Assembly (NCBI GenBank): GCA_043820105.1 | Contig: JBDREC010000088.1 | Location: 1-64,000 of the forward strand | Reading direction: 5' to 3' | DNA: 64,000 nt | From: Pseudomonadota bacterium | Lineage (GTDB): Bacteria > Bdellovibrionota_F > JAHFAK01 > JBDREC01 | Translations under genes and position numbers: made by a program | In this document: one piece after another, positions 7,397 through 64,000 of the stretch | Numbering within the stretch: the first letter of the stretch is position 1 | Layout: every line of letters starts with the position of its first letter | The notes under the pieces: model-generated | The model's input: only the letters and a program-made list of their open reading frames with translations | The model's database searches: none | What the model was told of the DNA's origin: nothing

Positions 7397-10300
7397 ATGA
7401 AAGAAAAATTAGATGCTTTTTTTGCTTCATTAAACAAAGGCAAAAAAAAGTATTCAGCTCATACAATTGAACAATATAAAAAAAAGCTTAATGATTTATT
7501 TGAATTTTGTGGCTATAAAGATGAATTTGACTTAGCTGACCTCGATGCATTTATCAATGATTTAAAAGCTAAAAATCATTCAAATTCTATTATTAACTTA
7601 TACATTTCAGCAATTAAAACCTTTTATAATTTTATTAATAAAAGATATAAAACCGAAAATCTAGGCAAAAAAATAAAAAACGAGAAAATTCGAAAGACTT
7701 TAAAGCTTGAAGATACAGATATTTTAAAGTTTTTACATAACATTAAAGATTTAGAAGATCCTAATAGGGGGATTTTCTATTTATATATCTTGTTTGGATT
7801 TAGCACCTCATTTATATCTAAATTAACTAAAGAAGATGTTGAAATTTTAGAGTGTAAAATAGGAATAAAAACAGATAAAAAACAATTTGAGTATTTTTCG
7901 TTAAATAATAGTGAATTTAAAGAGGTAATCAGGGCTTGTCTTGTGAATTTATGCGAAAATTCTCAAAATTATTTATTTGAAACCAAAAAGGGCACCTGTC
8001 TTTCAAAGCCCCATTTTAAATATCTGTTTAATAAATTTAAAAAATATTTACCTTTAGATTGCGATTCAATTATAAGATTAAAGGCAGATAATTTAATGCT
8101 TATAAAAGAAAATATACTTGATGGTTCATTGGTAAAATTATTATCTAAAAAACTAAAGATAAACAGGCTAATTTCAAAAAATGATATGACGGCTATTTAT
8201 GTTGCCTATAATATCCCAGAAAAAATGCCCGTTATTTTAAAAATCTTAAATAAGGATAAACAAAGCAAGGTCACAATTGACCAATTTAAACACGAGTTTT
8301 TAAATCTTAAAAAAGTCTCACATCCTTTGGTTCCAAAAGCATATGACTTTGAGTATCTAAAAGAAATAGACAGCTATTGTTTTACAATGGAATATTTTGA
8401 TTTTGAAAGTCTATCAAAATATGAAAAGAAAATATCTAATAAAGATATTGCCTTTATTCTTTACTATATGCTTGAGCTTCTTGAGCATCTTAAAAAAACA
8501 GGAATAAGCCACAATGATATTAATCCAAATAATATTTTATTTAAAAAAGACAGTGACAATAAGCTGCATTTGAAATTACTTGATTTTGGACTATCAAAAG
8601 CCAGCAAAGAGTTTAGTGTAGGAGGCACATTTTTATATATGCCACCTGAAATGATTATTGAAAAGCAAATGTCTCCTTCTTTGGATTTATATTCATTGGG
8701 TATTACAGCGTATTATCTTATTTCAGGAAAGTTTCCCTTTAGCGTGAAAAGCTTTGATGCATATCTTGAGGATATTAGAAAAGATAATTATATTTCCATA
8801 AGTAAATATAACAAAAATATATCCCTGAATTTTGAAAAAATTATATCTAAAATGACAGCCTTTGATCATGAAAAAAGGTACTCTTCGGCAAAAGAAGCTT
8901 TAGAGGACATCGAGAATTTAATTAAAATAGAGTTTTTAAATGATGATATTTTAAATGATCAAATCTCTCTTTCTTATGCAAATTTCATTGGAAGAAACAA
9001 GGAACTTTCAATATTAAAAAATAATTTTAGTATTGTTTATTCAGATATTTTAAAAACAAAGGAAATTAAATCATTTTTAATAAGTGGAGAAAAAGGTATT
9101 GGTAAAAAAAGACTAATAAACGAAATAGAAGTTTTAGCAAATTTAAACTGTATAGAATTAATTAAAGTTGATATCTCTAATAAAGATTTTTTAAATGAAA
9201 TTGTAGAGATTTGTCATAAGAAAAGAAAGCTCAAAAAAGAAGATACTAATATTGAATCAGAAGATGTAAATATTATAAAATCATCTCTGCTAAAAAAACT
9301 AGCTGTTTCTTTTTGTGATATTTTCAAGAATCAAAAGACTCTTCTTATTGTTGAAAACTTAGAGTGCCTGGACAAAACAGGCTTAACATTCTTTAAATTC
9401 TATTTAGATGAGCTTGTAAAAATTAGACTGTCATTAATGCTTTTGTTTTCACAGAATATTGACATATCGAGGGAAAATCCGAATATTTATAAGCTAAAGG
9501 AGTCAACTTCAATACACACAGGCTTTGAAGAAATTTGCCTGACAAATTTTTGCATGGCAAAAAGCCTTGATTTTATTTCTTCTATCTTAAACAGAGCCGT
9601 TTCTCCTGATTTTGTGGACTTTGTGTTTTCTTCTACAAATGGTAATCCACATTATATTATCTCATTGCTCTCTTATTTGCGAGATAGGGCCTTCTTGTAT
9701 ACAAAGAACCAGGTTGTAATGTTGAAAAAACATGCAATCGATATTCCTCCAAATATTCTAGAATTAACTTCTTCGAGGCTAGAGAGATTATCGCAAATAC
9801 AAAAAATAATTTTATTTATATTTACAGAGTTTAACAAGGAATTGAAAGTAGATATGTTGTTTTCAGTGTTATTAGAAACAAAACACAGTTTGCCTTTAGT
9901 TGATTTGATTGTGCACCTTAAGCAGCTTGTATCTGTAAATTTTATTAAAATAGTAAATAAAAAAGATGTTTTGTATAAGGAAAATATTAACGAAAATTCA
10001 ATCCTCAATCTTTCTGATCAGTTAATCAGTAATCAGATTCAAAAGCATATTTCGAAAAATAATTTAAAAGATATATCTTTGGCACTTTCAAATACAATGG
10101 AAGATTATTTAATAAAAGATAGTTCGTATAAAAAAGTCGCTGCTAGAAATTTACATAAAACAGGTCAAAACCAGAAGGCCTTTGATTTATATATTGAAAT
10201 CGCTGACGATTATTTGAAAAATAACATGATTGATTTAGCAGAAGATTATTACGAAAAAGCAACTTCTGCAAAGGAAATATTTGAAGGCGGTGAAAGCTGT

Positions 10301-13243
10301 ATATTTAATTATGCTAAGATTAAATTTCTTTTAAATAAATACGAAGAGGCTTTGGGCATTTATAATGCATTTTATGATAGATTGGAAAACAAGCCTGTTC
10401 AGGCAAAAGTATTGAAATTCATCGCTCAAATAAAAACAAAACAAGGCAATTATGAGGAGGGAATCAGGATATACGAACAAGCAATTTCTCTTTTAAGCGA
10501 TGAAAAACCAGACATGATGTCTGTAGAGATTAATTTACTTAAATTGACGGCCTTAATGAGTTTATCGCGATTCCAAGAATGTAAAGATATAATAAATAGG
10601 CTTAACGAGCTTAAAGAAATTGATATAAAATTACAGGCCAAGTTATATAACCTTGCTGGTCTTGTTAGTTATTATGAAGGCGAGCTTGAGCAAGCCAAGT
10701 CGAATCTTTTGTTAGCAATTGATTTGTCTGAGCGTTGTAATAGCATAAATGAGCAAATAGGAAGCATAAGCAACCTGGGTCTTGTTTATTTTGCACAAAA
10801 AAAATACCTAAAATCAATCAATTGCCACCAAAAAGCCTTGGAAATATGTGAAAATAATTTTATTGTTTTTATAAAAGCTCAACAATTAATAAACTTAGGA
10901 AATTGTTATTTAGAAACTGGCGGTTTGTCTAAGGCCATAGAAACATATGAAGAAGCGTATTCAATTTTTTCAAGCCTTAATTTTCCAAAGCAAAGTGAAG
11001 TGATTACTTTTAATGTTGCTTTAGTCTATTCTGAAATCGGCAGTTTTGATAAAAGCGAATTCTTTATTAACAAGTCCTTAGATTTATCTATTAAAAGAAA
11101 TAATAAACTTATGCAGGCTTATAATTATACCTTGTTAGCAAATCTTAATGCTTATAAGTATGATTATATCAAGGCCAGCAGCTATTTTAAAGAAAGCATT
11201 AAGATATTCAAAGAAATAAACGATAAAACTGGACTTGGCGAAACATATTTAAATATCGCAGATTCTAAGATCAGACTTGATGAATCAAGTGACCTTAACT
11301 ATTATATACAGGAAGCTAATAGTTTAGCCGCTAACAATCCTAACATTAGACTCTTTGCTATTTTATTAAAGGCAAGCGACCACTTAGATTCAAATAGTTT
11401 TAGCGAATGCAAGAACTTATTAGATTCCATAGAAAATACTGATATTGAGGATTATAGTTATTTTATTAAAATAAGATTCTATAAAATTTTTGCCTCTTAT
11501 TACTTTAAAATAAATAATAATGAAAAACTTAGCGTCTATAGTGATAAACTGAGAAATACACTGAGTGAATTATTGGAAAATATTCCAGCCACAAATAAAT
11601 TTAATTTTAAAAATCATTTTAAATTTATAGATGCCTTTCAATTTTTAAAAAATCTAGAGTATAACAAAAACGATGATACAAGTTCTTTTAAGCTTGAAAT
11701 GTTATATGAACTAACATCTGAGTTGTTGTTTGAAAAATCTCTGGAAAAACTGCTTGATTCAATTTTGGATAAGGCAATATTAATTTCAAATGCAAAGCGT
11801 GGATTTATTTTTTTAAAAAAGGATGAAAATGAAAACCTACAGCTTGCAAACAGCGACTACATTGTTGTTGCTGCAAGAAAAATAAATCAGGAGGAAATAG
11901 GAAAAACTTCTTTTAAACTTAGTTTATCAATACTTGAAAAAATGAAAAAGGAAAACAAGGTTTTAATTATTGATAATGCTCTGGAAACTTTTGATAAATC
12001 TTATAGCATACAGGATGCGAAATTACGCAGTATAGCTGTTTTTCCTGTTGTAGAAAAGGAATCAATTATTGGAGCGATATATTTAGATGATCCAGGCAAA
12101 GTTGATGCCTTTAAGGATATTGATGAAAAATTAATATCTACTTTATCAAAACATATTTCACTTGCGATTTCTCATGCAAGATTTTTGAATGGTTTAGAAA
12201 GTCAAAACAAGAATATCCTAAATGTAAATAAAAATTTGTCAGCCAGGCTAAATAACTTTGAGCAAAGAGAAGTACAGCTTTCAAAAATATTGGACTTTCA
12301 AAAAAACAAAGAAGAAGAAAAATATAATTATAAAAATATAATTACCAAAAGCCCTAAAATGCTGGAGATTTTCCAAACGCTGCAAAAAATACGAACTACT
12401 AATATTAATGTTTTGCTATTAGGAGCAACTGGTGTTGGAAAAGAGCTTATCGCTAGAGCCATTCACTTTAAAGGAGATAGAAAAGACAAGCCCTTTATCG
12501 CTGTTAATTGTGGAGCTTTTACAGAAAGCTTAATTGAAAGTGAATTGTTTGGTCATATTAAAGGAGCTTTTACGGGAGCTGATAACAATAAAGATGGAAT
12601 ATTTGAAGTGGCAAAGGGTGGCACCGTATTTTTAGATGAAATTGGAGAAATGTCTCTGGAGACTCAAAAAAAACTTTTAAGGGTACTGCAAAATAGGGTT
12701 ATAAAAAAAGTTGGAGATACAAAGTTTGTTGACATTGATGTAAGAATAGTTGCAGCTACAAATGTAAATTTACTAAAGAGTGTACAAAAAGGTACCTTTA
12801 GACATGACCTTTATTATAGAATAAATTCAATGGAAATTGTTATTCCGTCATTAAAAGATCGCATTGAAGACATCCCACTCCTTGTTGAACATTTCGTTAA
12901 TAAGTTTGATCCAAATAAGAAAATAGACCCAAAGCTTATTGAAGTATTTATGAATTATGATTGGCCGGGAAATGTTCGAGAACTTGAAAATGAAGTGCAT
13001 AAACTGGTTGTTTTTTCTGAAGGTGATATTCTCAAGAAATCTTTACTACAAAATAATTCTAAATTTTTTATTAATAAACAAGAAATAAAAATAAAAACTA
13101 TTGCTGAAATGGAAAAAGATCTGATTATTAAAGCTTTAAAAGAAACTTTGAATAATAAATCTAAAGCAGCCAAAACTCTTGGTATTGATAGAAGGACTTT
13201 GGATCAAAGAATTAAAAAATATCATTTAACTTTTCATTCTTGA
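7397..13243 (+). CDS. Multidomain sigma-54 activator: degenerate tyrosine-recombinase-like N-terminus, Ser/Thr kinase, STAND-type ATPase, TPR, GAF, bEBP AAA+ and Fis-HTH
   Basis: YSAHTIEQY...SAIKTFYNF (integrase SAM-like); [20 protein letters not shown] (kinase); [15 protein letters not shown] (ATPase); TPR helices; GAIYLD (GAF); [48 protein letters not shown] (HTH). Confidence 0.9.
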
Positions 13244-33803: not shown

Positions 33804-33891
33804 GTTTATTGATGGGGGAAGAAAAAATAAGAAAACAACCACTAATTAATAAATAATAATTAATAATTAATGGGGAGAAGAGGAGACAAAA

Positions 33892-54966: not shown

Positions 54967-55992
54967 ATGAAAAAGCTAATAACAACATTATTATTAATAT
55001 CCTTTATATTGTCATCATGCATGACCTCAGGAGGAACCTCTGCTAACCAGGTTATTGGTGATGCAGCTGGAAGTGATGAAGAATGGGATTGGGATGAAGA
55101 TGATCCATTTGGTGGGCTTGAAGATTATGATGATACTGATAGTGATGGTGATGGAGTATATGACTGGATTGAAGAACAAATGGGCACAGATCCAAATGAT
55201 CCAACAGATGTTCCAGATGTAGCAGGTGCACTGGCCTATGATGCGAGTCTTGATTCTTCAGGAATGTCTAATTTAACAGATTATCTTGGTGGAGCGTTAT
55301 CAACTTCAATGGCCTCTGTACTAACAGCCTGGGGACTACCAAAAAATATTAAAACTTGCATAACTCCACGCCCTACAAAAATTAAAGGAAACTTAGTAAC
55401 AACAGATCAAAAGGCTTTAAAACAATCAAGCTTTACAATAAACTCTTTGGATATTGATACAGCAACAGAAACACCAACAACAGGAAAATTGAAATTTTCT
55501 GGAAACCTTTATTACATGCTAACAAAGGGAACTGGTGATAGTAATATACAAGTAGGTCATTATTCTGTACAAGCTGGTATAATTATCATGAAACCAATGG
55601 GTTTTACAACTTGTGTTAATACATTCGCAGTAGATGTGGCTGAAATCCCATGCAAACCTTGTGAGTTTACAGATACAGGCGTTGTTGAAGTATTCGCGGA
55701 AGTTTTTGGTGACTGGGCTTGTACTCAAGATCTGGATAATAAAAAACCTGGTCTTTATGTGGGCTGGGAAGAACCAATTAGCAATGGCTCAATTCAAGGC
55801 ATTGAATTAACAGGAGTTTCGGCAATTGATGGAAATTTATATGAATTAACCTATATAAATGATAAAGCTGGAGCAACAGATCAAGAATGTGATGAAATAA
55901 GAGATGATTCAACTGAAGTAAGCGCTGAATCATTAGTAGAAGATCAGACAAGTATTCTTGAATTAAGAGAGATTTCAACACCGAAAATATAA
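54967..55992 (+). CDS. Lipoprotein B1 (TSP3-like motif)
   Basis: LSSC lipobox; DSDGDGVYDWIEEQMGTDPND; paralogous to the genes at 57628 and 60098. Confidence 0.85.
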   Translation: MKKLITTLLLISFILSSCMTSGGTSANQVIGDAAGSDEEWDWDEDDPFGGLEDYDDTDSDGDGVYDWIEEQMGTDPNDPTDVPDVAGALAYDASLDSSGMSNLTDYLGGALSTSMASVLTAWGLPKNIKTCITPRPTKIKGNLVTTDQKALKQSSFTINSLDIDTATETPTTGKLKFSGNLYYMLTKGTGDSNIQVGHYSVQAGIIIMKPMGFTTCVNTFAVDVAEIPCKPCEFTDTGVVEVFAEVFGDWACTQDLDNKKPGLYVGWEEPISNGSIQGIELTGVSAIDGNLYELTYINDKAGATDQECDEIRDDSTEVSAESLVEDQTSILELREISTPKI

Positions 55993-56328
55993 GTTGAATT
56001 TTGAATTTTGAATTTTAAAAACCATACGACAGTCACTAAAAGTCAATAATATTAATACCATAACAGCCCTAAAACCCTCTTAAAACCAATTTAACAACAG
56101 AAACCCACCTCTAATAATCCAAAATTCAAAATCCAAAACAAACCAAATCCACAAAAATACCAGTAAACCAAATACCAAACACAACTCCCATGCCTAAAAT
56201 TCAGCAAAAAACCCCTGTTTCCTTAACAAAATCGCTGAAGATTATGGATTATAATTAGGATTAGGATCAAGGTTAGAATAAAAAAATCCAAGAAATCTCC
56301 ATATAAGCTCCCGAAATAACAAGAAACA

Positions 56329-56363
56329 AGCTTACAGCTGACAGCTTACAGCTTACAACTTAT
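56329..56363. repeat. Heptamer array (AGCTTAC)n abutting the cassette-2 promoter
   Basis: AGCTTAC AGCTGAC AGCTTAC AGCTTAC AACTTAT. Confidence 0.85.
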
Positions 56364-56368
56364 TCTCT

Positions 56369-56383
56369 TGGCACACATCTTGA
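56369..56383 (+). promoter_or_regulatory. sigma-54 promoter (cassette 2)
   Basis: TGGCAC-ACATC-TTGA (-12 GA variant). Confidence 0.7.
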
Positions 56384-56452
56384 AATAGAACTCAGTAAGG
56401 CGTATATAAAAACTGTATTATTGTATAAAAACACCAAAATGGGAGTTAAGCA

Positions 56453-57586
56453 ATGAAAAATATTAGTTTTTTAGTCGCCTTATCATGGCTCTATCTATTA
56501 TCAACAATTGGTTGCGGACCAACTGCTGCCAGAAATGCATCAGAATTTAAAAATCCATTAGATGAATTATTCGACAAATGGGGGCAATGCACAGAAGTTT
56601 CCCCAACAGCCACAGATCCATATTGTATTGATTCAGATGGAGATGGTATTCCAGATCTAGTGGAACTGGAAATGGGAACTGATCCAGATGATGGTGATAT
56701 GACCCAGGAAGAATTTTGCTTAAATGCAATGCAAACCGGATCAGAGTACGCTGAACAGTTCTGTGAAGCCATGGGCCTGGGCAATGGTTTTGGTGATATG
56801 CTTGATCAGGCAGCAGCTGGTGATGGATTTAATGCAGAACTTCTGATTTCGATTTTGCAATTAACAGGAGATGCTCTGACTCAGATTTTGACAGCTTTTG
56901 CTGAAGCGGGAAAGACGAGTAATCCGTATATGGGATCAGCTCCAACTGGATATAACACAAGAGATAGTGAAAAAACAGATAAAACAAATGAATTACTTGA
57001 GGAATTACTATCAACAATGGATGAACAACCAAGTAATCTTGGACAAGCATCACCTTCAACGATTTCTAGATCACATAATGAATACTCATATTATTATATA
57101 GGAAAAGCACCTAGAAGAACTTGGACCAAAAATGAAGTTAGAAGCCAGAACGCTTCTCAATGGCAATTTGCTGAACCTACATCTTCTACATCATACATAA
57201 ATATTGTTAGCACAGAATCAAAATATGAATATGTAATCGCATCAAATTATTCTCCAACAGAAGGCCTAAGTTATGATTTTGGGTCTATAACAGACGCTTG
57301 TGGAAATATTGGTTGTGGATTAATTTTTACACCATACGCCACTTCGCAAAATTATTTTAACGCAATGACAATTCATTCTTATTCAAGTTGTAAAATTGTT
57401 GATAACGGTGATAAAACATATGATGATATAAAGAAAAATACGCCTGGAGCAATTGGTCTATTTTACCTTTGTTATGATCCGATTACAGGCGAAGACACAG
57501 GTTATATAGATTCAGATGATAACGAATGTGAGGTCTATTTGAGAAAAACATTGGTTGATTGTAACACTGAAAGTTCAAGCAGTTAA
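56453..57586 (+). CDS. Lipoprotein A2
   Basis: TIGC lipobox; N-terminus highly similar to A1 and A3. Confidence 0.85.
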   Translation: MKNISFLVALSWLYLLSTIGCGPTAARNASEFKNPLDELFDKWGQCTEVSPTATDPYCIDSDGDGIPDLVELEMGTDPDDGDMTQEEFCLNAMQTGSEYAEQFCEAMGLGNGFGDMLDQAAAGDGFNAELLISILQLTGDALTQILTAFAEAGKTSNPYMGSAPTGYNTRDSEKTDKTNELLEELLSTMDEQPSNLGQASPSTISRSHNEYSYYYIGKAPRRTWTKNEVRSQNASQWQFAEPTSSTSYINIVSTESKYEYVIASNYSPTEGLSYDFGSITDACGNIGCGLIFTPYATSQNYFNAMTIHSYSSCKIVDNGDKTYDDIKKNTPGAIGLFYLCYDPITGEDTGYIDSDDNECEVYLRKTLVDCNTESSSS

Positions 57587-57627
57587 TCAATGAATGAACC
57601 AATATTATTATTTAGAAAGAGCAATTT

Positions 57628-58590
57628 ATGAAAAAAATATTTTCAATATACTTATTAATCGCGTTTTTAAGCTACCCATTCACCTCTTGCATGACAGGTG
57701 GAACATCCGCTTCCAGAAATCTTTCTGACACTGGTGGCATAACAGATCCTGGCGCCGGCTGGGATATTGATCCAGGTGATCCTTTTGCTGGTCTTGAGGA
57801 TTATGACACAACAGACACAGATGGTGATGGGGTGCCTGACTGGATTGAAGAAGAATATGGCTCAGATCCAAATGATCCAGATTCAATCCCGGATTTAGAA
57901 GCAGCCCTTGGTTATGACGAAAGTCTTGATGCTTCCGGCATGGAAAACCTGGCTAGCACCCTTGGAGGCCTGACTGTCACCATAGCTTCAACCTTGATTT
58001 CCTGGGGTTTAACAGCAAATGCGAAAATGTGTATCAAGCCATCTGGCAAAGGTAACATAAAAGCATCAGACCTGGAAGCCCTTCAAGGAGCAACACTTTC
58101 AATTTCAGGTGGCGCTGGAAGCTTGACCCTAGCAGGCGGCCTGTACACAATGACAACAGCTGGGGCTCAGGGTGATTATATAGATGCAGGAAATTTTACA
58201 ATATCCAAAGGTCATCTTATTTTAAAACCAATGGGAAAGGAATGTGTTTATACTTATAGTGCTAGTATTCAGGAAGTGCAAAATGAAGGTTCATGCAATC
58301 TGTTTTGTATTGGAACCGGAAGTATTCCCTATAGTGATTTAGTAGTTGATGGTGTACCAGTCTGCAAAAATGAATGCACAAAACCTAATGACGGAACAGC
58401 AATGGCAACAAAGCATAACACACCTCAACTGGGCTGGGCTGATCCAATTGAATCCTCAAAAATCGATCAATTCAAGTTAGAAGGAATAGACTCTCCAACT
58501 AAAACCCCAATAAGCCTAACGTACTCGAACACTGGATATAAAAGTACTGGAGTTAGTTATAATGACATCGATGAACCCAGAACTTTCTAA
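57628..58590 (+). CDS. Lipoprotein B2
   Basis: FTSC lipobox; DTDGDGVPDWIEEEYGSDPND. Confidence 0.85.
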   Translation: MKKIFSIYLLIAFLSYPFTSCMTGGTSASRNLSDTGGITDPGAGWDIDPGDPFAGLEDYDTTDTDGDGVPDWIEEEYGSDPNDPDSIPDLEAALGYDESLDASGMENLASTLGGLTVTIASTLISWGLTANAKMCIKPSGKGNIKASDLEALQGATLSISGGAGSLTLAGGLYTMTTAGAQGDYIDAGNFTISKGHLILKPMGKECVYTYSASIQEVQNEGSCNLFCIGTGSIPYSDLVVDGVPVCKNECTKPNDGTAMATKHNTPQLGWADPIESSKIDQFKLEGIDSPTKTPISLTYSNTGYKSTGVSYNDIDEPRTF

Positions 58591-58746
58591 AAACATGCCT
58601 AAATTTCAGCAAAAAATTAAAAAAATGGTGGTTTTTGGATATACAATCAGAATTAGGATTAGGATTAGGATTAAGTTTAGAATTTGTTTTCAATAATCAA
58701 AATCCATTAACCCTCCAATAAGCCCATGAAATCACTAAAAAACAAA

Positions 58747-58805
58747 CTTACCACCTAGCACTTACCACTTACCACTTACCACTTACCACTTACCACTTCC
58801 CCACT
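58747..58805. repeat. Heptamer array (CTTACCA)n abutting the cassette-3 promoter
   Basis: CTTACCA CCTAGCA (CTTACCA)x5 CTTCCCCA. Confidence 0.9.
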
Positions 58806-58820
58806 TGGCACAGATCTTGA
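58806..58820 (+). promoter_or_regulatory. sigma-54 promoter (cassette 3)
   Basis: TGGCAC-AGATC-TTGA (-12 GA variant). Confidence 0.7.
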
Positions 58821-58889
58821 AAAATAACCTAATTAGAGCGTAAAAAACGTTAAATATTATGAAATAAAAACACTTTGGGGAGTTAAGTA

Positions 58890-60068
58890 ATGAAAAATAT
58901 TAAACTATTTATTGCCTTAGCATTGCTCATAGCAATATCAACAATTGCTTGCGGACCAAGCGCAGCCAGAAATGCTTCAGAATTTCAAAATCCACTTGAT
59001 AACTTATTAGACAAATGGGGTCAATGTGTAGAAGTATCACCAACAGCCACAGATCCATACTGCATAGATTCAGATGGAGACGGTTTTCCAGATCTAGTAG
59101 AACTAGAAATGGGAACAGATCCAAATGATGGAGATATGACTCAAGAAGAGTTTTGCCTAAATGCAATGCAAACTGGTTCTGAATATGCTGATGCATATTG
59201 TGAGGCAATGGGTCTTGGTGGTGGATTTAATGATCTTTTAAATCAAGCTGCCGCTGGCAGTGGATTTAATTCAGAACTTTTAATATCAATTCTTCAAATA
59301 ACAGGTGATGCTTTAACTCAGATTCTAACAGCTTTTGCTGAAGCAGGAAAGACAAGCAATCCACAAGGGGGCACAATGCCATCTGGTTATAATTATCAAA
59401 ATGATAAAATAGATAGAGATGAGCTTGCAGAACTTCTGAATCAAATGAGAACAAATCCAGATACAAGCTCTTCATCAACAAGCAATAGAGGAAAATCAAC
59501 ACCAACAACAGAGTCAGTAACTCCTGATGAGTATACTTTTTATAAATTTGATGACGATGTATTTTCTAACATTTCAACTTTTGCAACAACTTTAGATGCA
59601 AACTATGAAGCAGAAACAATGATGCCTTTAGCTGCAGATAATCCTACTTACCTGAATATCATAAATGTTGAAGGTAGCAAGTATGAATATGTAATAGGAA
59701 CATATGCTGACTATGGTTACTCATATGAATTTGGGTATATTAATAATGGTTGTGGCGCTCCTGGTTGTGACCTTATATTAACACCATTTTCAACTCAGCA
59801 AAATATTTTTAAAAGTTACACAGCATTATCATACACTGGCTGTAAAGAAGTTAAAAGTCAAAATGGCAAAACCGAATATGATGCATTAAAATCTCAAAGC
59901 ACTGGTGCAGTTTATAAATTTGCATTATGCTACAAATCCATTGCTCAGCAGGCATATGATGGAGAATTATTGGAGCACTGTGATTATTATTTTAGAGCAA
60001 ACCCCGTTGACTGCAATGATAAAAGTGATGAATTAGAAGCAGCTGAAGCCGATGCAACAGATGAATAA
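58890..60068 (+). CDS. Lipoprotein A3
   Basis: TIAC lipobox; paralog of A1 and A2. Confidence 0.85.
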   Translation: MKNIKLFIALALLIAISTIACGPSAARNASEFQNPLDNLLDKWGQCVEVSPTATDPYCIDSDGDGFPDLVELEMGTDPNDGDMTQEEFCLNAMQTGSEYADAYCEAMGLGGGFNDLLNQAAAGSGFNSELLISILQITGDALTQILTAFAEAGKTSNPQGGTMPSGYNYQNDKIDRDELAELLNQMRTNPDTSSSSTSNRGKSTPTTESVTPDEYTFYKFDDDVFSNISTFATTLDANYEAETMMPLAADNPTYLNIINVEGSKYEYVIGTYADYGYSYEFGYINNGCGAPGCDLILTPFSTQQNIFKSYTALSYTGCKEVKSQNGKTEYDALKSQSTGAVYKFALCYKSIAQQAYDGELLEHCDYYFRANPVDCNDKSDELEAAEADATDE

Positions 60069-60097
60069 ACAAACATTATAAAGGAAAAGAGCAAATT

Positions 60098-61060
60098 ATG
60101 AAAAAGATATTTTCAATATATTTAATAATAGCATTATTAAGCTACCCACTAAGTTCTTGCATGAGTGGTCAAGCTGCCGGATCAAGAGCTTTATCAGATA
60201 GTGGAGCAACAGACACAGGTGATGGCTGGGAATTTGATCCGAATGATCCATTTGGCGGGTTAGATGGCATTGATACAACAGACACTGATGGTGATGGAGT
60301 TTATGATTGGATTGAAGAAGAATATGGTTCAGATCCAAATGATCCAAATTCAATACCAGATCTTGAATCAGCTCTTGGTTATGACGCGAGTCTTGATTCA
60401 AGTGGTTTAGACAGTCTTGCTGACACCTTAGGTGGCCTAACAATTTCACTTGCTACAACATTAATTTCTTGGGGATTAACCGCTAATGCCGTTATGTGCG
60501 TAACCCCAGGCCCAGGAAAAGGAAATATTGAAACAACAGATCAAGAAGCATTAATTGGAGCATCATTTGCAATGGTTTCGTCAGAAGCTGCTGGAGCAAT
60601 TAAATTTGATGAACAAACTAGATACTATCTAACAACAGTTATTCCTGATTTTGATGATCCCTTTACGGAAACTGGATATTTTAAAATCATAAAAGGTAAA
60701 TTAATTCTAAAACCAGTCGGAAAAGCCTGCGTTTATACTTATAAGGCTAGCATTCAAGAGATAACATGTGAACCTTGCGTTACAACAGACTTTCCTATAA
60801 GCGATGCTTTGCTTACCATGTTTGGAGATACGAAATGCACTTCTAATACAAAAAATCAAGTAGCTGGCACTTATATGGGCTGGCAAGATCCAATTGAAAC
60901 ATCAACCTTACTAGAAATGAAAATAGAAGGAATTGACTCTCAATCAAAAGCTGAAATTATTGGCCTATATACAAATGCAAGAGCTGGTCAAGGAAATGAT
61001 ATGGAGTGTGACGAAGTTTCAAAATCTGAGACAATGACCATTAGAACTATGGCTGAATAA
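60098..61060 (+). CDS. Lipoprotein B3
   Basis: LSSC lipobox; paralog of B1 and B2. Confidence 0.85.
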   Translation: MKKIFSIYLIIALLSYPLSSCMSGQAAGSRALSDSGATDTGDGWEFDPNDPFGGLDGIDTTDTDGDGVYDWIEEEYGSDPNDPNSIPDLESALGYDASLDSSGLDSLADTLGGLTISLATTLISWGLTANAVMCVTPGPGKGNIETTDQEALIGASFAMVSSEAAGAIKFDEQTRYYLTTVIPDFDDPFTETGYFKIIKGKLILKPVGKACVYTYKASIQEITCEPCVTTDFPISDALLTMFGDTKCTSNTKNQVAGTYMGWQDPIETSTLLEMKIEGIDSQSKAEIIGLYTNARAGQGNDMECDEVSKSETMTIRTMAE

Positions 61061-61140
61061 AAATAAAATAATTAAGATTTCTTGAAATTGCTTTCCTAAT
61101 TTCCTATAATAATATAGAGTTTTTAAATAAAAGACTGGTG

Positions 61141-61204
61141 GTCATTCTGAACTTGTTTCAGAATCCACTGCGTCCAAGGGATCCTGAAACAAGTTCAGGA
61201 TGAC
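61141..61204. repeat. Inverted doublet of palindromic repeat family A
   Basis: GTCATTCTGAACTTGTTTCAGAATCC, 11-nt spacer, then GGGATCCTGAAACAAGTTCAGGATGAC. Confidence 0.9.
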
Positions 61205-61227
61205 AAGCCAATATATATTGGAATAAA

Positions 61228-61830
61228 ATGAATAAATTTAATTTACGACATACTACATACAACTTACGACTTAAACGAAAAGGACAAACTTTAATTGAGT
61301 TTGCTCTCATCTTGCCCTTTTGGTTTTTTCTAGTTTTCTTTTTTATCAAGCTTTGCTTTTTCTTGGTAGAAGAGCACATTGGAACATACATAGCATTTAT
61401 GGCAGCCAGATCATATCAAGTTTATGGAAATGAAAAAGAAGAAAATGGCTCTGAAATGAAATATAAAAAAGTGGCAAAAGATATGTTATCTCACTCTTTT
61501 TTATTTACAAGTGAAAATGAACAAACCATAGATGTTTTCGTAGACAGCGCTAAAGCTCAAAATATGACTGTCTTTTCACAAGAAAGTAACTTTTACCAAT
61601 ACGATGCGCTGCTTGATATATATGGAATGTCACAAAACCAAGATAATTACACATTAGGAGTCCAATCCCCTGATCAAGCAATAGACAAAGGACGCTTCGG
61701 AATTTTAAAACTAACCTTTCCACACACCTGGAATATTTTCCCAATGTTAGGTGGATCGATGTTTGATAAACATGAGATTTATGTACCGTATAGGCTGGAG
61801 CCTTTGTTGATACCCGATAGCGGGGGGTAG
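61228..61830 (+). CDS. TadE-like pseudopilin
   Basis: KRKG|QTLIEFALILP prepilin motif followed by AFMAARS. Confidence 0.82.
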   Translation: MNKFNLRHTTYNLRLKRKGQTLIEFALILPFWFFLVFFFIKLCFFLVEEHIGTYIAFMAARSYQVYGNEKEENGSEMKYKKVAKDMLSHSFLFTSENEQTIDVFVDSAKAQNMTVFSQESNFYQYDALLDIYGMSQNQDNYTLGVQSPDQAIDKGRFGILKLTFPHTWNIFPMLGGSMFDKHEIYVPYRLEPLLIPDSGG

Positions 61831-61840
61831 TGGGGTGTTG

Positions 61841-61878
61841 GTATTTGGTATTCAGTATTTAGTATTCAGTATTCGGTA
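61841..61878. repeat. Heptamer array (GTATTYR)n, left arm of an inverted pair
   Basis: GTATTTG GTATTCA GTATTTA GTATTCA GTATTCG GTA. Confidence 0.9.
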
Positions 61879-61937
61879 GGTGAATAGAGGGTGTTATTGT
61901 TAATGTGCTTTGGTGAATAAAGCTATATTGAGGTTTT

Positions 61938-62294
61938 ATGACGATTAAAAATTTTAGAGAATTAATTGTTTGGCAAAAGGGAGTTGAATTAACAGAATTA
62001 GTTTATAAAATTACTAAAAGCTTTCCTAAGCACGAACAGTACTGTTTAAATCAGCAAATAAGAAGATGTGCAATTTCAATCCCATCTAACATTGCAGAAG
62101 GTTTCGCGAGAAAACACAACAAAGAATTTAAACAGTTTTTATATATTTCTTTAGGTTCATTGGCTGAACTCGAAACGCAATTAGAAATAGCAAACAAACT
62201 AGCATATATGAATAATAAAATTTATGATAACATAATCACAGAAGTTACACATGAATATAAAATGATTTTAAATTTAATAAAAAAACTAAAATAA
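61938..62294 (+). CDS. Four-helix-bundle protein (23S rRNA-IVP/TIGR02436-like family)
   Basis: FRELIVWQKG...FPKHEQY.L..QIRRCAISIPSNIAEG...FLYISLGSLAELETQL. Confidence 0.93.
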   Translation: MTIKNFRELIVWQKGVELTELVYKITKSFPKHEQYCLNQQIRRCAISIPSNIAEGFARKHNKEFKQFLYISLGSLAELETQLEIANKLAYMNNKIYDNIITEVTHEYKMILNLIKKLK

Positions 62295-62316
62295 AATAGA
62301 AAGATTTTCAATAATA

Positions 62317-63735
62317 ATGAAAAATATCTTCAAAAAATGGACCCCTCTTAAACCAAATACTAAATACCGAATACTGAATACTAACCACGGCCAGGCCCTA
62401 ATAATGTTCGCCCTCTCAGTCATGCTATTCATGGTCCTACTCAGCTTTGTTGCAAATATGTCTCGCTTAACAAACTATAAAATCCGCCTGCAAACAGCTG
62501 TAGATATGGCGGCCTATAATGCAGCGGCCATCATGGCTTATTATATGTCGAATGATTCGCCTGATGAGGATTCTGTGGCTGAGATAAACAGGGAAATAAT
62601 GATAGATTTCGTGAAATTTCGGGAGGGAGTAACTTTGGCGAATTGTTCTAAGATACCGACTGAACATGGTCCTAGAGAAAACTGTTATCCTGGTATGATG
62701 TTAGAAATGTCAGAATGTGATGCTGCCCCTGGAATTGGTCCCCCTTGTACACATCCTGGGGTTGGATCACGGGCAAGTGAATCAATAGATGCATATTATG
62801 ATGATTATTTGGCAAGAACCGAAAAAAGACATGAAAAAATCTATTATTTAATGTTAAATGCTTATAAAAACGCAATAACTTCTGCTAAAAAAACTATTGA
62901 AGCAAATTTACCTAATGTTGATGTAGAAAATGAACTTATAACAATTGCAAATCCATTAAAATTTATCCAGGAATCTGAAAATATTATCCCTTCATTTTAT
63001 TGCCCTGAAATACAAGCGGGATGGCAAACTGAATATAATTGTTTTTGCACATTATCCTCAAGTCCTGACCCAACATTTATGGCAATGCCTTATGATGAAA
63101 AAATAGGCTCTGTAAACCGCCGACTTATTTTTGACAGAACTAATTCTTCTGGTTATTTTTTAGTAGGCGTTGTTCAAAGTGCCCATGATCCGGTCTTTGA
63201 CCCAAGCACAAAAGAAAAGCCAGCCCCATTTGATTATATGAACTTTTCATCTGCCTTTGGAAGACATGATTTCCCGGCTATGCAGGCCTGGGCAGCTGCT
63301 GCGCCTTATAGAGATTGGAATGAAGTAACAAATTCAAGCGATACACCCATTAGAGACCCCTATTTAAAAGAATACATTCAAAGAACAGTTGATGTAATTC
63401 GTAATTGGCATCATGATCACAAGAGATATCATGAATATTGGAGTAGTCTTAATAATCTACATGGTGACTATTATGCTGAAGGCCCCCCTGATGAAACGGA
63501 TTACGCCCCTGACGCCCTCTTTTACCCAAATCCAAAATACAGAGTTCGCTTCATCCCTCTTGCTGGTGGAGAAGGACCATATGGATTAGGATTATATGGA
63601 AAAGATTCAAGTGCAAATCCATTTGAACTTTTTGGATTATCTGAGATATTATTTGGCAATGATGCATATGTAAATCATTTGGCTTCGTCAGGAGTGAATG
63701 CGCAGAATGCTTATAAGGCGTTGTTTAGGCATTGA
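62317..63735 (+). CDS. TadG-like pseudopilin (Tad N-terminal domain)
   Basis: HG|QALIMFALSVMLF...KIRLQTAVDMAAYNAA; Cys-rich variable body. Confidence 0.8.
   Translation: MKNIFKKWTPLKPNTKYRILNTNHGQALIMFALSVMLFMVLLSFVANMSRLTNYKIRLQTAVDMAAYNAAAIMAYYMSNDSPDEDSVAEINREIMIDFVKFREGVTLANCSKIPTEHGPRENCYPGMMLEMSECDAAPGIGPPCTHPGVGSRASESIDAYYDDYLARTEKRHEKIYYLMLNAYKNAITSAKKTIEANLPNVDVENELITIANPLKFIQESENIIPSFYCPEIQAGWQTEYNCFCTLSSSPDPTFMAMPYDEKIGSVNRRLIFDRTNSSGYFLVGVVQSAHDPVFDPSTKEKPAPFDYMNFSSAFGRHDFPAMQAWAAAAPYRDWNEVTNSSDTPIRDPYLKEYIQRTVDVIRNWHHDHKRYHEYWSSLNNLHGDYYAEGPPDETDYAPDALFYPNPKYRVRFIPLAGGEGPYGLGLYGKDSSANPFELFGLSEILFGNDAYVNHLASSGVNAQNAYKALFRH
62353..62382. repeat. Heptamer array (YRAATAC)n, right arm, inside the TadG-like leader
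   Basis: CAAATAC TAAATAC CGAATAC TGAATAC; complementary to 61841-61878. Confidence 0.9.
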
Positions 63736-63738
63736 GAA

Positions 63739-63792
63739 TAAGTGGTAAGTCGTAAGTGGTAAGTGGTAAGTGGTAAGTGGTAAGTCGTAAGT
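63739..63792. repeat. Heptamer array (TAAGTSG)7, left arm
   Basis: Seven TAAGTGG/TAAGTCG units directly after the stop of the TadG-like gene. Confidence 0.95.
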
Positions 63793-63885
63793 ATTTGTTG
63801 ATGAAGTTAAGGTTTTTTGATTTGAATTAAAGATTGAGCTAAGGAGCTTATAAATCAAATTCAGGACGCTAACAAAGAGGAATAA

Positions 63886-64000
63886 ATGAATAAAACCAAA
63901 AACATCCAAAAACTAGCAAAGCCCTTACGACTTACGACTTACCACTTACGACTTACCACTTACCACTTACCACTTACCACTTACCACTTACCACTTAAAC
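63886..64000 (+). CDS. 5' end of a probable third Tad-like pseudopilin (partial)
   Basis: AAGAGG RBS; MNKTKNIQKLAKPLRLTTYHLRLTTYHLPLTTYHLPLK is open to the window end and resembles the TadE leader LRHTTYNLRLK. Confidence 0.55.
   Translation, partial: MNKTKNIQKLAKPLRLTTYHLRLTTYHLPLTTYHLPLK
63924..63997. repeat. Heptamer array (CTTACSA)10, right arm
   Basis: Ten CTTACCA/CTTACGA units; reverse complement of 63739-63792. Confidence 0.95.

Follow-up and report, generated by a model that had tools for sequence, protein, structure and literature searches.

Most of the PF05635/TIGR02436 genes examined here are flanked by complementary heptamer arrays that can form a hairpin with the gene in its loop, and this arrangement is probably the normal genomic form of the family, not a peculiarity of one locus. 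From 5' to 3', the unit generally comprises a G-rich heptamer array, 10-100 nt that include a ribosome-binding site, the ORF, 0-80 nt, and a complementary C-rich array. The gene described here encodes a 118-aa protein and is located near the end of the window, which is the whole 64,000-nucleotide stretch of DNA analyzed. No report of a family-wide link between PF05635 genes and heptamer arrays was found in the literature searched. We know of no function for the PF05635/TIGR02436 family, the Avd branch aside, since its discovery in rRNA intervening sequences (IVS) in the early 1990s.

Results

Complementary heptamer arrays enclose the 118-aa gene

The locus and its neighbors consist of the following features.

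61228..61830, + strand: upstream neighbor, a 200-aa ORF with a TadE-like N-terminus, KRKGQTLIEFAL (ORF list, weak PF07811)
61243..61273, + strand: degenerate heptamer array, TTACGAC-like, in the leader-coding 5' end of the 200-aa ORF (Tandem Repeats Finder)
61841..61878, + strand: 5' arm, (GTATTYR)5 followed by GTA (sequence, Tandem Repeats Finder; paired in predicted folds)
61879..61937, + strand: 5' portion of the loop (sequence reading)
61938..62294, + strand: 118-aa four-helix-bundle gene, PF05635/TIGR02436 (ORF list, profile searches)
62295..62353, + strand: 3' portion of the loop, containing ATG 62317, at which the downstream ORF has its first in-frame start (sequence, ORF list)
62354..62384, + strand: 3' arm, (YRAATAC)4 followed by TAA, the reverse complement of the 5' arm (sequence, Tandem Repeats Finder)
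62317..63735, + strand: downstream neighbor, a 472-aa ORF with a TadG/Tad-like hydrophobic N-terminus (ORF list, PF13400)

Direct reading of the sequence gives the units of the 5' arm at 61841-61875 as GTATTTG, GTATTCA, GTATTTA, GTATTCA and GTATTCG, and those of the 3' arm at 62354-62381 as CAAATAC, TAAATAC, CGAATAC and TGAATAC. Tandem Repeats Finder recovers both arrays (61841-61878 and 62352-62384), so the original prediction of a (GTATTYR)5 array upstream and a (YRAATAC)4 array downstream of the gene is borne out. The 5' arm is G-containing and C-poor, and begins 11 nt past the stop codon of the 200-aa ORF. An 18-bp perfect complement had been claimed between 61861-61878 and 62365-62382; it is correct, and extends without mismatch to 20 bp (61859-61878 with 62365-62384). 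The motif GTATTYRGTATTYR, at no more than one mismatch, has 8 matches in the window against a shuffle mean of 0.58, and none of 100 shuffles reached 8. Seven of these matches make up the two arms. The predicted fold of the 580-nt segment 61821-62400 pairs the arms with a minimum free energy (MFE) of -119.1 kcal/mol (z = -2.94, matched by none of 100 shuffles), and the arms joined only by a linker have a predicted fold of -50.6 kcal/mol.

A Shine-Dalgarno-like GAGG (61930-61933) is positioned 4 nt ahead of the ATG of the 118-aa gene, and no sigma-70-like promoter was called within 61879-61937. The start codon of the next ORF, ATG 62317, was said to lie inside the loop, and it does; the public gene call for this ORF starts instead at ATG 62404, 3' of the second arm, and yields 443 aa, leaving the start ambiguous. 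The 3' arm codes for residues 13-23 in the 472-aa reading or, if translation begins at 62404, sits 20 nt 5' of the start. Start codons in the window are hard to call with confidence where repeats encode such "leaders".

The flanking genes had been labeled a Tad-like locus, but this label is weak. The 472-aa ORF reaches the PF13400 cut-off (22.5 bits against 22.3), but PF07811 matches the 200-aa ORF below its cut-off (E = 6.9e-4, 20.1 bits against 22.9), and profiles detected no pilus assembly genes among 32 further ORFs of the window, which ends at 64000. The Tad-type N-terminal scores are weak throughout (PF07811, 20.1 and 17.3 bits against 22.9; TIGR03816, 18.3 against 50.95). A search of 5.8 billion proteins with the 472-aa ORF returned no homologue, its sole match being the record from its own contig.

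The 118-aa protein is an ordinary family member

Profile searches matched the 118-aa protein to PF05635 with E = 8.7e-40 and 135.7 bits (cut-off 33.8) over profile positions 1-104 of 106, and to TIGR02436 with 132.9 bits (cut-off 24) over positions 1-109 of 109. By sequence, it is an ordinary member of this four-helix-bundle family, annotated as "23S rRNA intervening sequence protein". It has the family size of ~110-130 aa and the conserved SxPSNIAEG / ExxTQ core, and the invariant columns of a 34-sequence alignment include S47, P49, S50, N51, E54, G55, F56, R58, E77 and T80. At least 7,997 significant homologues exist, the nearest having 63% identity among the matches listed. Among all window ORFs of 70-260 aa, an iterated HMM search identified the gene at 61938 as the sole family member. 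No nuclease, transposase or recombinase domain was recognizable in the protein by profile searches.

Solved relatives were found by sequence similarity (PDB 2gsc, E = 7.5e-24; 2rld, E = 7e-6), each with 5 chains. The description of the PF05635 family as pentameric is credited to Lin et al. 2006 in PMC4990558. The 118-aa protein is basic, with a predicted pI of 9.3, and is a candidate repeat binder. The ideas in the original prediction that it recognizes 7-nt-periodic duplexes, and that the unit is mobile or acts as a switch, stand as hypotheses.

Inverted heptamer arrays recur around related genes

The genomic loci of relatives were taken from the best 80 of 597 confirmed matches; these represent the query's own subfamily at 44-62% identity, a part of PF05635, and cover at least 12 phyla, with isolate genomes among them. 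The closest relative in the genome contigs searched is 62% identical over the best matching segment. Taxonomic placement by a conserved transporter was tried and dropped, as the best match had 67% identity and the matches bore mixed names (Neomarinimicrobiota, Deltaproteobacteria, Nitrospinota). An exact inverted repeat of at least 12 bp spans the gene in 42 of 84 relatives compared with 3 of 415 random positions of the same spacing (Fisher p = 7e-34), and the longest repeat at those 415 positions is 14 bp. When the remaining ORFs of these loci serve as the control, the counts are 37/83 and 19/704 (p = 1.6e-26). The proposed survey of PF05635 genes for enrichment of inverted heptamer arrays therefore gave a positive answer against both controls.

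Arms were defined by ungapped alignment. Duplex folding of whole 150-nt flanks was rejected for this purpose, since the predicted duplexes sprawl over ~130 nt, although it favored a gene's own pair of flanks (median -62.0 kcal/mol versus -45.4 kcal/mol for mismatched pairs). The ungapped complementarity score is at least 12 in 55 of the 84 genes, and the median arm length is 23 nt. Self-identity of the flanks is in excess only at lags of 7 (0.342 versus 0.288) and 14 (0.325 versus 0.285). The arms are 7-nt periodic, and the sequence of the unit varies between loci. A universal heptamer core was considered and discarded; AGT/TAG upstream and ACT/CTA downstream were the commonest 3-mers recurring at +7, yet these occurred at only 25-30 of 84 loci and many units lack them.

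The 1.2 Mb of related loci contain 143 period-7 arrays compared with 0-29 for periods 5, 6 and 8-11, and local shuffling reduces the number of period-7 arrays to 0-4. Sixty-four of the 143 lie within 250 nt of a family gene, a zone that makes up ~6% of the sequence, and 79 lie away from any. Inverted pairs of period-7 arrays enclose a family gene in 17 cases out of 21. Strict period-7 detection finds arrays on both sides of 15 of 86 genes and misses many arms that are too short or degenerate, so measures were combined; by this threshold count, 68 of 84 genes have an inverted repeat or a period-7/8 array. Degenerate heptamers were visible by eye in most of the 12 genes inspected among the 16 below threshold.

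The cassettes in related loci are mostly wedged between two genes of the same strand. For 64 of 86 family genes both neighbors lie on the strand of the gene itself; the median gaps are ~60 nt, and this is the setting expected for co-transcription. Distant arrays match the arms of the local family gene, at no more than one mismatch, in 11 of 53 cases, and match the arms of other loci at a rate of 3.2% (binomial p = 8e-7).

A second hairpin has no four-helix-bundle gene

The end of the window holds a second hairpin, and further heptamer arrays are found upstream of the locus.

56329..56362, + strand: (AGCTTAC)4.9 array, paralogous, ahead of ORF 56453 (Tandem Repeats Finder)
58746..58806, + strand: (ACTTACC)7.6 array, its unit in common with 63924-63997 (Tandem Repeats Finder)
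63739..63792, + strand: 5' arm of the second hairpin, (TAAGTGG)7.7 (Tandem Repeats Finder, fold)
63793..63923, + strand: loop of the second hairpin, 131 nt, with a ribosome-binding site (AGAGGA) and the start codon, ATG 63887, of the ORF that follows, MNKTKNIQKLAKP... (sequence)
63924..63997, + strand: 3' arm of the second hairpin, (CTTACCA)10.6, reaching the window end (Tandem Repeats Finder)

The 5' arm of the second hairpin begins 4 nt past the stop codon of the 472-aa ORF. Its 3' arm can be translated as the repetitive leader LRLTTYHLPLTTYHL... of the ORF starting at 63887. The predicted stem of 63739-63997 is ~54 bp (MFE -114.7 kcal/mol, z = -14.6), and the iterated HMM search of window ORFs of 70-260 aa placed no four-helix-bundle gene in its loop. 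Together with the 4 of 21 inverted pairs that lack a family gene and the 79 of 143 arrays found elsewhere, this hairpin indicates that the structure does not depend on the gene. The proposal that inverted heptamer arrays are general companions of PF05635 genes is accordingly upheld as an enrichment across relatives, but not as a gene-specific association.

Arrays beyond the two hairpins are located at 55994, 56329, 58746 and 61243, and the array at 58746-58806 is directly 5' of a TGGCAC-N5-TTGAA motif and a lipoprotein ORF at 58890. The window contains 7 period-7 arrays compared with 0-2 for periods 5, 6, 8 and 9. Its G+C content is 33%, and the Tandem Repeats Finder output has 76 rows of short repeats.

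Predicted stems do not differ in stability between strands

As a test for selection at the RNA level, the predicted stability of sense and antisense hairpins was compared at 55 loci. The sense strand was better at 25, the antisense strand at 29 and the two were equal at 1 (Wilcoxon p = 0.91). There was no excess of G-U pairs on the sense strand at these loci (102 of 1,669 sense pairs and 100 of 1,690 antisense pairs). The stems would therefore form as well in antisense RNA or single-stranded DNA, and RNA and DNA models are not separated by this test. The position of a G-rich arm upstream of the gene (51 of 55 loci; 81 of 83 when whole flanks are counted) was rejected as a sign of strand-specific use because an inverted repeat shows this polarity whichever strand is read.

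Stop codons occur at 0.093 per nt in 5' arms and 0.042 per nt in 3' arms, a 2.2-fold difference (p = 5e-5). This surplus is a side effect at best. The provision of stops in all frames was rejected as the cause of the 7-nt period; only 13 of 55 5' arms close three frames, and the arm in the window closes one.

Discussion

The 118-aa locus as a probable hairpin cassette

By analogy with the rRNA insertions, we give somewhat better than even credence to the 118-aa locus being an IVS-like hairpin cassette within an operon transcript that is processed by RNase III. The cassette would be transcribed from the promoter of the host operon, and the arms would pair in the transcript to form a 20-45 bp duplex. 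RNase III may then cut this duplex as it does the stem of an rRNA IVS, which would release the mRNA of the small gene and part the upstream from the downstream cistron. If the 472-aa reading is right, a cut in the stem would also sever the start codon from the body of that ORF. Since each arm is a tandem repeat, the arms can still pair after slipping into any register, and the stem can lengthen or shorten by 7 nt at a time. A change of this size also alters the frame of any coding leader that an arm overlaps. Overlap of this kind is certain at ORF 61228, likely at ORF 63887 and possible at ORF 62317. RNase III does not account for a period of 7, and this counts against the cassette explanation.

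The inverted arrays might act instead at the level of DNA, either as the functional termini of a cassette that moves or promotes recombination or as scattered sites on which the product acts in trans, as in the RAYT/REP model, with the hairpin forming in single-stranded DNA or the arrays serving as protein-binding sites. We consider this fairly unlikely. Mobility would explain why two cassettes 4.8 kb apart in one genome (L002) share the ORF, with most columns identical, and arms of the CGTGAAG type but cannot be aligned beyond the arms. It would also fit a five-protein clade (98% SH-aLRT) that unites a record titled Deltaproteobacteria with Nitrospirota records and has CGTGAAG-type arms in 5 of 5 members, but the clade comes from a quick tree of 121 columns with many unresolved forks, from which 10 of 86 genes were left out because the estimated start gave an in-frame stop or a product of <90 aa. 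The sharing of units between distant arrays and the local gene (11/53 against 3.2%) points the same way, and the genomes published as heptamer-rich (Xanthomonas, Nostoc and Bacteroidetes) fall in groups that carry the family; yet the other 42 of the 53 distant arrays differ in unit from the local arms, and those elsewhere in the window are of the ACTTACC type, not GTATTCA. Stems that are equally good on both strands suit a DNA element. The 118-aa protein, however, lacks a recognizable nuclease, transposase or recombinase domain, and several Flavobacteriia loci (L007, L013 and L015) have near-identical coding sequence either side of the cassette, which resembles vertical inheritance of a fixed site.

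Local features of the window lend some appeal to an account in which the arrays are primarily phase-variable simple sequence repeats of surface or pilus-like genes, with the four-helix-bundle gene in the loop by happenstance. All period-7 arrays of the window that are not low-complexity lie within its last 8 kb; three successive pilin-like ORFs (61228, 62317 and 63887) have a heptamer array in or adjoining their leader-coding 5' ends, where a 7-nt step shifts the frame; and two paralogous lipoprotein genes have arrays just 5' of promoter-like motifs. There is also a precedent in the phase variation of a Haemophilus influenzae adhesin, described as driven by heptamer repeats with an RNase III-cut hairpin (PMC12721329). 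This account is nevertheless improbable given the family-wide statistics, which show that a gene between inverted arrays is no coincidence of this locus. Moreover, related cassettes mostly lie between same-strand genes that have no obvious surface role, such as bccP (acetyl-CoA carboxylase) in Xanthomonas and the response-regulator-like starts in L002. An AT-rich, repeat-prone intergenic region could in principle produce two unrelated arrays as by-products, and the G+C content and the 76 repeat rows of the window are of the kind that would allow it. The probability of this is close to negligible: the 20-bp perfect complement exceeds the 14-bp maximum of 415 control positions, none of 100 shuffles yields as many motif matches, period 7 alone stands out among the periods counted, and the architecture recurs in 55 to 68 of 84 relatives.

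Implications for heptamer repeats and for annotation

The hairpin cassette links two subjects, the orphan PF05635/TIGR02436 family and the excess of heptamers; the normal habitat of the gene is the loop of a complementary-array hairpin in operons of at least 12 phyla. Heptamers are reported to be in excess among the simple sequence repeats of bacteria, and "no detailed literature" is said to explain why (PMC4692102). A speculative extension, which we regard as rather doubtful, is that bacterial heptamer repeats have a trans-acting partner, so far missing, in the PF05635 proteins. A pentameric ring would read 7-nt-periodic nucleic acid, the cognate arrays around its own gene would serve self-regulation or self-propagation, in the manner of RAYT genes between REPs, and the protein would act on or seed scattered arrays. 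If this were true, its targets would be the hundreds of arrays and hairpins that precede start codons in organisms such as cyanobacteria, Bacteroidota, Xanthomonas and Beggiatoaceae, and it would explain both a very large orphan family and the heptamer excess. For annotation, the cassettes split operons and may cut or frame-shift the neighboring genes.

Comparison with known systems

The 23S rRNA IVS of Leptospira, Coxiella and others likewise places a PF05635 ORF in the loop of a long stem of terminal inverted repeats. At 61841-62384, the ORF is enclosed by the 20-bp complement inside a longer predicted stem. The Coxiella IVS has 2-3 tandem GACAGAT heptamers upstream of the family ORF, with a copy number that differs among strains, and is excised by RNase III with the 5' cut at the first repeat, as published for one organism (PMC4990558). 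The statement in the original prediction that the family occurs in RNase III-excised 23S rRNA IVSs agrees with this account. The IVS is an insertion in helix 25/45 of 23S rRNA, whereas the cassette in the window lies between protein-coding genes, has tandem arrays of 4-5 units as both arms and contains the start codon of its neighbor in the loop. No rRNA gene or Rfam family was detected at the gathering score in the whole window, and only two chance-level Rfam matches appeared at E up to 1 in 55800-64000.

Avd, the DGR accessory protein, is a basic pentamer that binds nucleic acid, a description supported in part by PMC10053308, and belongs to a related four-helix-bundle sequence family. The original prediction had also named this kinship, and the Pfam bAvd match and PMC10053308 agree with it. 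The 118-aa protein scores under the cut-off of both Avd models (PF22296 (bAvd), 32.2 against 40 bits; NF033474, 32.9 against 80). No reverse transcriptase was detected among the 39 window ORFs scanned, a set that covered ORFs of <110 aa only within 56-64 kb.

RAYT is a small transposase gene bracketed by inverted REP sequences that are also scattered over the genome. RAYTs are recognizable as HUH/Y1 enzymes, and each REP is a palindrome whose sequence is fixed. The cassettes resemble this system in that one small gene is bracketed by a short repeat in inverted orientation, with further copies of the repeat dispersed in the genome. They differ in the protein, for which no catalytic domain is known, and in the repeats, which are heptamers in tandem and vary in sequence.

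The hmw1A gene of H. influenzae has a heptamer-repeat 5'-UTR hairpin that RNase III cleaves, and both expression and changes in repeat number require this hairpin (PMC12721329). The likeness is a transcribed heptamer array that forms one arm of a long hairpin just 5' of a surface-protein gene. As described in PMC12721329, only the left arm of the hmw1A hairpin is repetitive, the right arm being a G-rich region, the loop has no ORF and the pyrimidine-rich arm comes first, the reverse of the polarity in the window. In the window, a heptamer-array hairpin arm lies at or over a gene start at both 61841-62384 and 63739-63997, and the surface nature of the ORFs is weakly indicated. The hmw1A hairpin is the best analogue of the cargo-less hairpin at 63739-63997.

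Dispersed intergenic heptamer arrays, often just 5' of start codons, are the remaining point of comparison. Xanthomonas genomes have 70-75 convergent inverted GGGAATC pairs each (PMC4692102), and a GGGAATC array overlaps the start codon of XCC0516, the crystallized family member of PDB 2gsc (PMC4692102, supplement file 2, row 27). TAACTGA repeats occur in Beggiatoaceae, cyanobacteria and Bacteroidetes with 7-nt-step length changes between strains (PMC4679880), and the STRR of cyanobacteria are another array type, mentioned in PMC4692102. A term search found neither "S23" nor "four helix" in the main texts of PMC4692102 and PMC4679880. The arrays of those two reports have one unit per genome; in the cassettes described here, the unit varies by locus while the period of 7 and the complementarity of the arms are kept.

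Inverted heptamer arrays bracket a four-helix-bundle gene

The original observation of a gene bracketed by inverted heptamer arrays holds in the sequence. Both arrays can be read directly and are also listed by Tandem Repeats Finder, and the ORF list places a 118-aa reading frame between them.

Elements of the cassette (forward-strand coordinates)
61841-61875, 5' arm, five GTATTYR units
61938-62294, 118-aa ORF between the arms
62354-62381, 3' arm, four YRAATAC units

The arms are perfectly complementary over 20 bp (61859-61878 with 62365-62384), 2 bp more than originally noted. A pattern search gave 8 matches to the two-unit motif versus 0.58 in shuffles, and none of 100 shuffles reached 8. 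The predicted fold of a 580-nt stretch pairs the arms (z = -2.94), and the predicted folding energy of the arms alone is about -50 kcal/mol.

The encoded protein is basic (pI 9.3) and scores 135.7 bits against PF05635 (cut-off 33.8) and 132.9 bits against TIGR02436 (cut-off 24), the 23S rRNA intervening sequence protein family. Among solved structures it matches XCC0516 (PDB 2gsc, five chains) with E = 7.5e-24, and it scores below the cut-offs of both models for Avd, the accessory protein of diversity-generating retroelements. Homologues number in the thousands, the nearest among the matches listed having 63% identity.

The cassette sits between two same-strand ORFs whose N-termini are weakly TadE-like and TadG-like. 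These N-termini are what stands of the proposed Tad-like locus; within the 64-kb window, neither pilus machinery nor a reverse transcriptase or rRNA gene was found. A search of 5.8 billion proteins matches the TadG-like 472-aa ORF (62317-63735) to a single entry, which comes from the window's own contig. The public call is 443 aa with its start at ATG 62404, beyond the 3' arm, so translation of this arm depends on the start used (62317 or 62404).

The architecture recurs in at least 12 phyla

A profile from an alignment of 34 homologues was scanned against a genome collection, giving 601 candidates, of which 597 were confirmed. The best 80 of these 597 loci were kept, a sample of the query's own subfamily that covers at least 12 phyla, isolate genomes among them, and contains 86 family genes by tblastn. 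Flank tests left out two genes whose flank ran beyond the locus end and one further gene for N in its flank. An exact inverted repeat of at least 12 bp between the 250-nt flanks was present at 42/84 genes compared to 3/415 random positions of the same spacing (p = 7e-34). When flanks of other ORFs served for comparison, the values were 37/83 versus 19/704 (p = 1.6e-26). The enrichment anticipated around family genes was thus found by both comparisons.

Self-identity of the flanks rises at lags 7 and 14 only. The loci hold 143 period-7 arrays versus 0-29 for neighbouring periods, and 0-4 remain after local shuffling. Stretches up to 250 nt from a family gene make up about 6% of the sequence and contain 64 of the 143, a count that includes two divergent family genes beyond the tblastn set. 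With these two genes included, family genes are enclosed by 17 of 21 inverted array pairs, and the ungapped arm complementarity score is at least 12 for 55/84 genes. The median arm spans 23 nt, stopping 40 nt 5' of the ATG and resuming 17 nt 3' of the stop. By combined thresholds the architecture is present in 68/84 genes; 12 of the 16 genes under threshold were inspected by eye, and most have degenerate heptamers. Unit sequence varies by locus (CGTGAAG, AGTGAAC, CAGATAC, AGGGGAT and others) and a minority of loci have 8-nt units; period and arm complementarity are conserved. These results establish the architecture with its statistics, and the pairing as a prediction; the finding is broader than originally proposed.

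When a unit with a stop codon repeats every 7 nt, 21 nt are enough to close all three frames. Among 55 cassettes, stop codons are 2.2 times as frequent in 5' arms as in 3' arms, and all three frames are closed in 13 of the 5' arms, the window's own not among them. Translational insulation is a possible effect of stop-rich 5' arms.

Family genes are embedded in operon-like runs: 64/86 share the strand of both neighbours, with gaps of about 60 nt. In a quick tree that dropped 10 of the 86 genes, close protein relatives share the unit type of their arms, and a 98%-supported clade joining a Deltaproteobacteria-titled record with Nitrospirota records has CGTGAAG arms throughout. Two cassettes in one genome have ORF and arm type in common and differ in the sequence outside the arms. 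Distant arrays have the unit of the local gene's arms in 11/53 cases versus 3.2% for other loci.

Locus L004 has family genes of different subfamilies at 8825-9248 and 10001-10360, each within its own inverted heptamer arrays, and one ORF (9345-9950) between them in the same operon-like run. In three loci (L062 11733-11849, L011 5491-5565 and L033 9196-9272), perfect arrays with about 11 to 17 units occur at 1-5 kb from a family gene; one example of a very long array is CAGTGGT, repeated about 17 times in a Balneolaceae genome.

Heptamer arrays without the family gene

Period-7 arrays are confined to the final 8 kb of the window, except for an AT-only low-complexity array at 33847-33871.

Further repeats in the window (forward-strand coordinates)
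56240-56267 and 58652-58684, hexamer arrays GATTAG/ATTAGG, before the heptamer arrays of the lipoprotein gene pairs
within 56329-56384 and 58746-58821, heptamer arrays AGCTTAC or ACTTACC, ahead of the lipoprotein gene pairs
63739-63792, second inverted pair, 5' arm, (TAAGTGG)7.7
63924-63997, second inverted pair, 3' arm, (CTTACCA)10.6, continuing past the window end

Folding predicts about 54 bp of stem for the second pair (z = -14.6), which is much stronger than the cassette pair. The 131-nt loop of the second pair contains nothing more than a ribosome-binding site and ATG 63887, and the ORF from this start continues across the 3' arm, which gives it a 7-aa-periodic repetitive leader (LRLTTYH / LPLTTYH). 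Searched iteratively with a profile, the window's ORFs of 70-260 aa gave no second family gene; therefore, heptamer hairpins occur with and without gene cargo, and the window's arrays are not private to the family gene. Similar cargo-less inverted pairs with loops of 10-116 nt occur in three related loci that have a family gene elsewhere.

Cargo-less inverted pairs in related loci
L037, 17471-17541
L037, 20110-20191
L074, 9297-9361
L044, 2518-2728

The TadE-like ORF 61228 has a degenerate TTACGAC/ACTTACG array in its leader-coding region (61228-61290; MNKFNLRHTTYNLRLKRK followed by GQTLIEF), of the unit type seen at 63739-63997. ORFs 61228 and 63887 open alike, with MNK and an LRLTTY-type leader. 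A 7-nt step in the 61228-61290 array would shift the reading frame of the TadE-like ORF, and the window's arrays may in addition be contingency repeats of pilin-like genes. Just upstream, 61140-61205 contains short hairpins TCTGAACTTGTTTCAGA and ATCCTGAAACAAGTTCAGGAT, mutually inverted copies with only a chance-level match in Rfam; similar repeats occur in intergenic regions of other bacteria.

Two duplicated lipoprotein gene pairs (56453-58590 and 58890-61060) encode TSP3-repeat proteins and have paralogous upstream intergenic regions, each ordered as hexamer array, heptamer array and TGGCAC-N5-TTGAA. The last motif is sigma-54-promoter-like apart from the -12 GC. ORF 7397-13243 encodes a 1,948-aa kinase-TPR-GAF-sigma-54-activator. 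Immediately 3' of the stop codon of ORF 54967-55992 lies (TTGAATT)3 (55994-56016), with an imperfect inverted partner (AATCCAA / AATTCAA, 56116-56138) about 100 nt downstream; 55994-56138 is possibly another small heptamer hairpin.

A model for the cassette

The best-supported reading is an IVS-like unit (after the 23S rRNA intervening sequence) in an mRNA. By analogy, we infer transcription through the cassette and RNase III cleavage: the cassette would be co-transcribed with its operon, the arms are predicted to pair in the transcript, and RNase III would cut the paired arms, which would free the small gene's message and uncouple the neighbouring cistrons. With tandem-repeat arms, the stem would outlast slippage and its length could vary in 7-nt steps. 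The original interpretation is supported in part: inverted heptamer arrays do accompany family genes in general, and similar hairpins also occur without the gene, as at 63739-63997.

A role at the DNA level, resembling that of a RAYT transposase gene and its scattered REP repeats, was also considered. The test able to favour RNA over DNA was neutral, and the 'G-rich arm first' rule, followed by 51/55 loci, is uninformative because it is strand-symmetric. A RAYT/REP-like role is therefore kept as a candidate, although an unlikely one.

Relation to known repeat systems

No report tying the family outside rRNA to inverted heptamer arrays was found in the literature searched, which misses most subscription journals. 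Xanthomonas has about 186 GGGAATC arrays, with 70-75 pairs in convergent orientation, and the same paper describes an excess of heptamers in bacterial repeats (PMC4692102). The main text of that paper does not mention S23 or four-helix proteins; in its supplementary table, array 15 overlaps the beginning of XCC0516, the family member that was crystallised. In Beggiatoaceae, cyanobacteria and Bacteroidetes, TAACTGA arrays are found immediately 5' of start codons (PMC4679880), and the main text of this second paper does not mention the family. In the Coxiella 23S rRNA IVS, 2-3 tandem GACAGAT units precede an ORF of the same family, unit number differs between strains, and RNase III excises the IVS with its 5' cut at the first repeat (PMC4990558). 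In Haemophilus influenzae, a 5'-UTR heptamer-repeat hairpin that is cut by RNase III controls both an adhesin and changes in its repeat number (PMC12721329).
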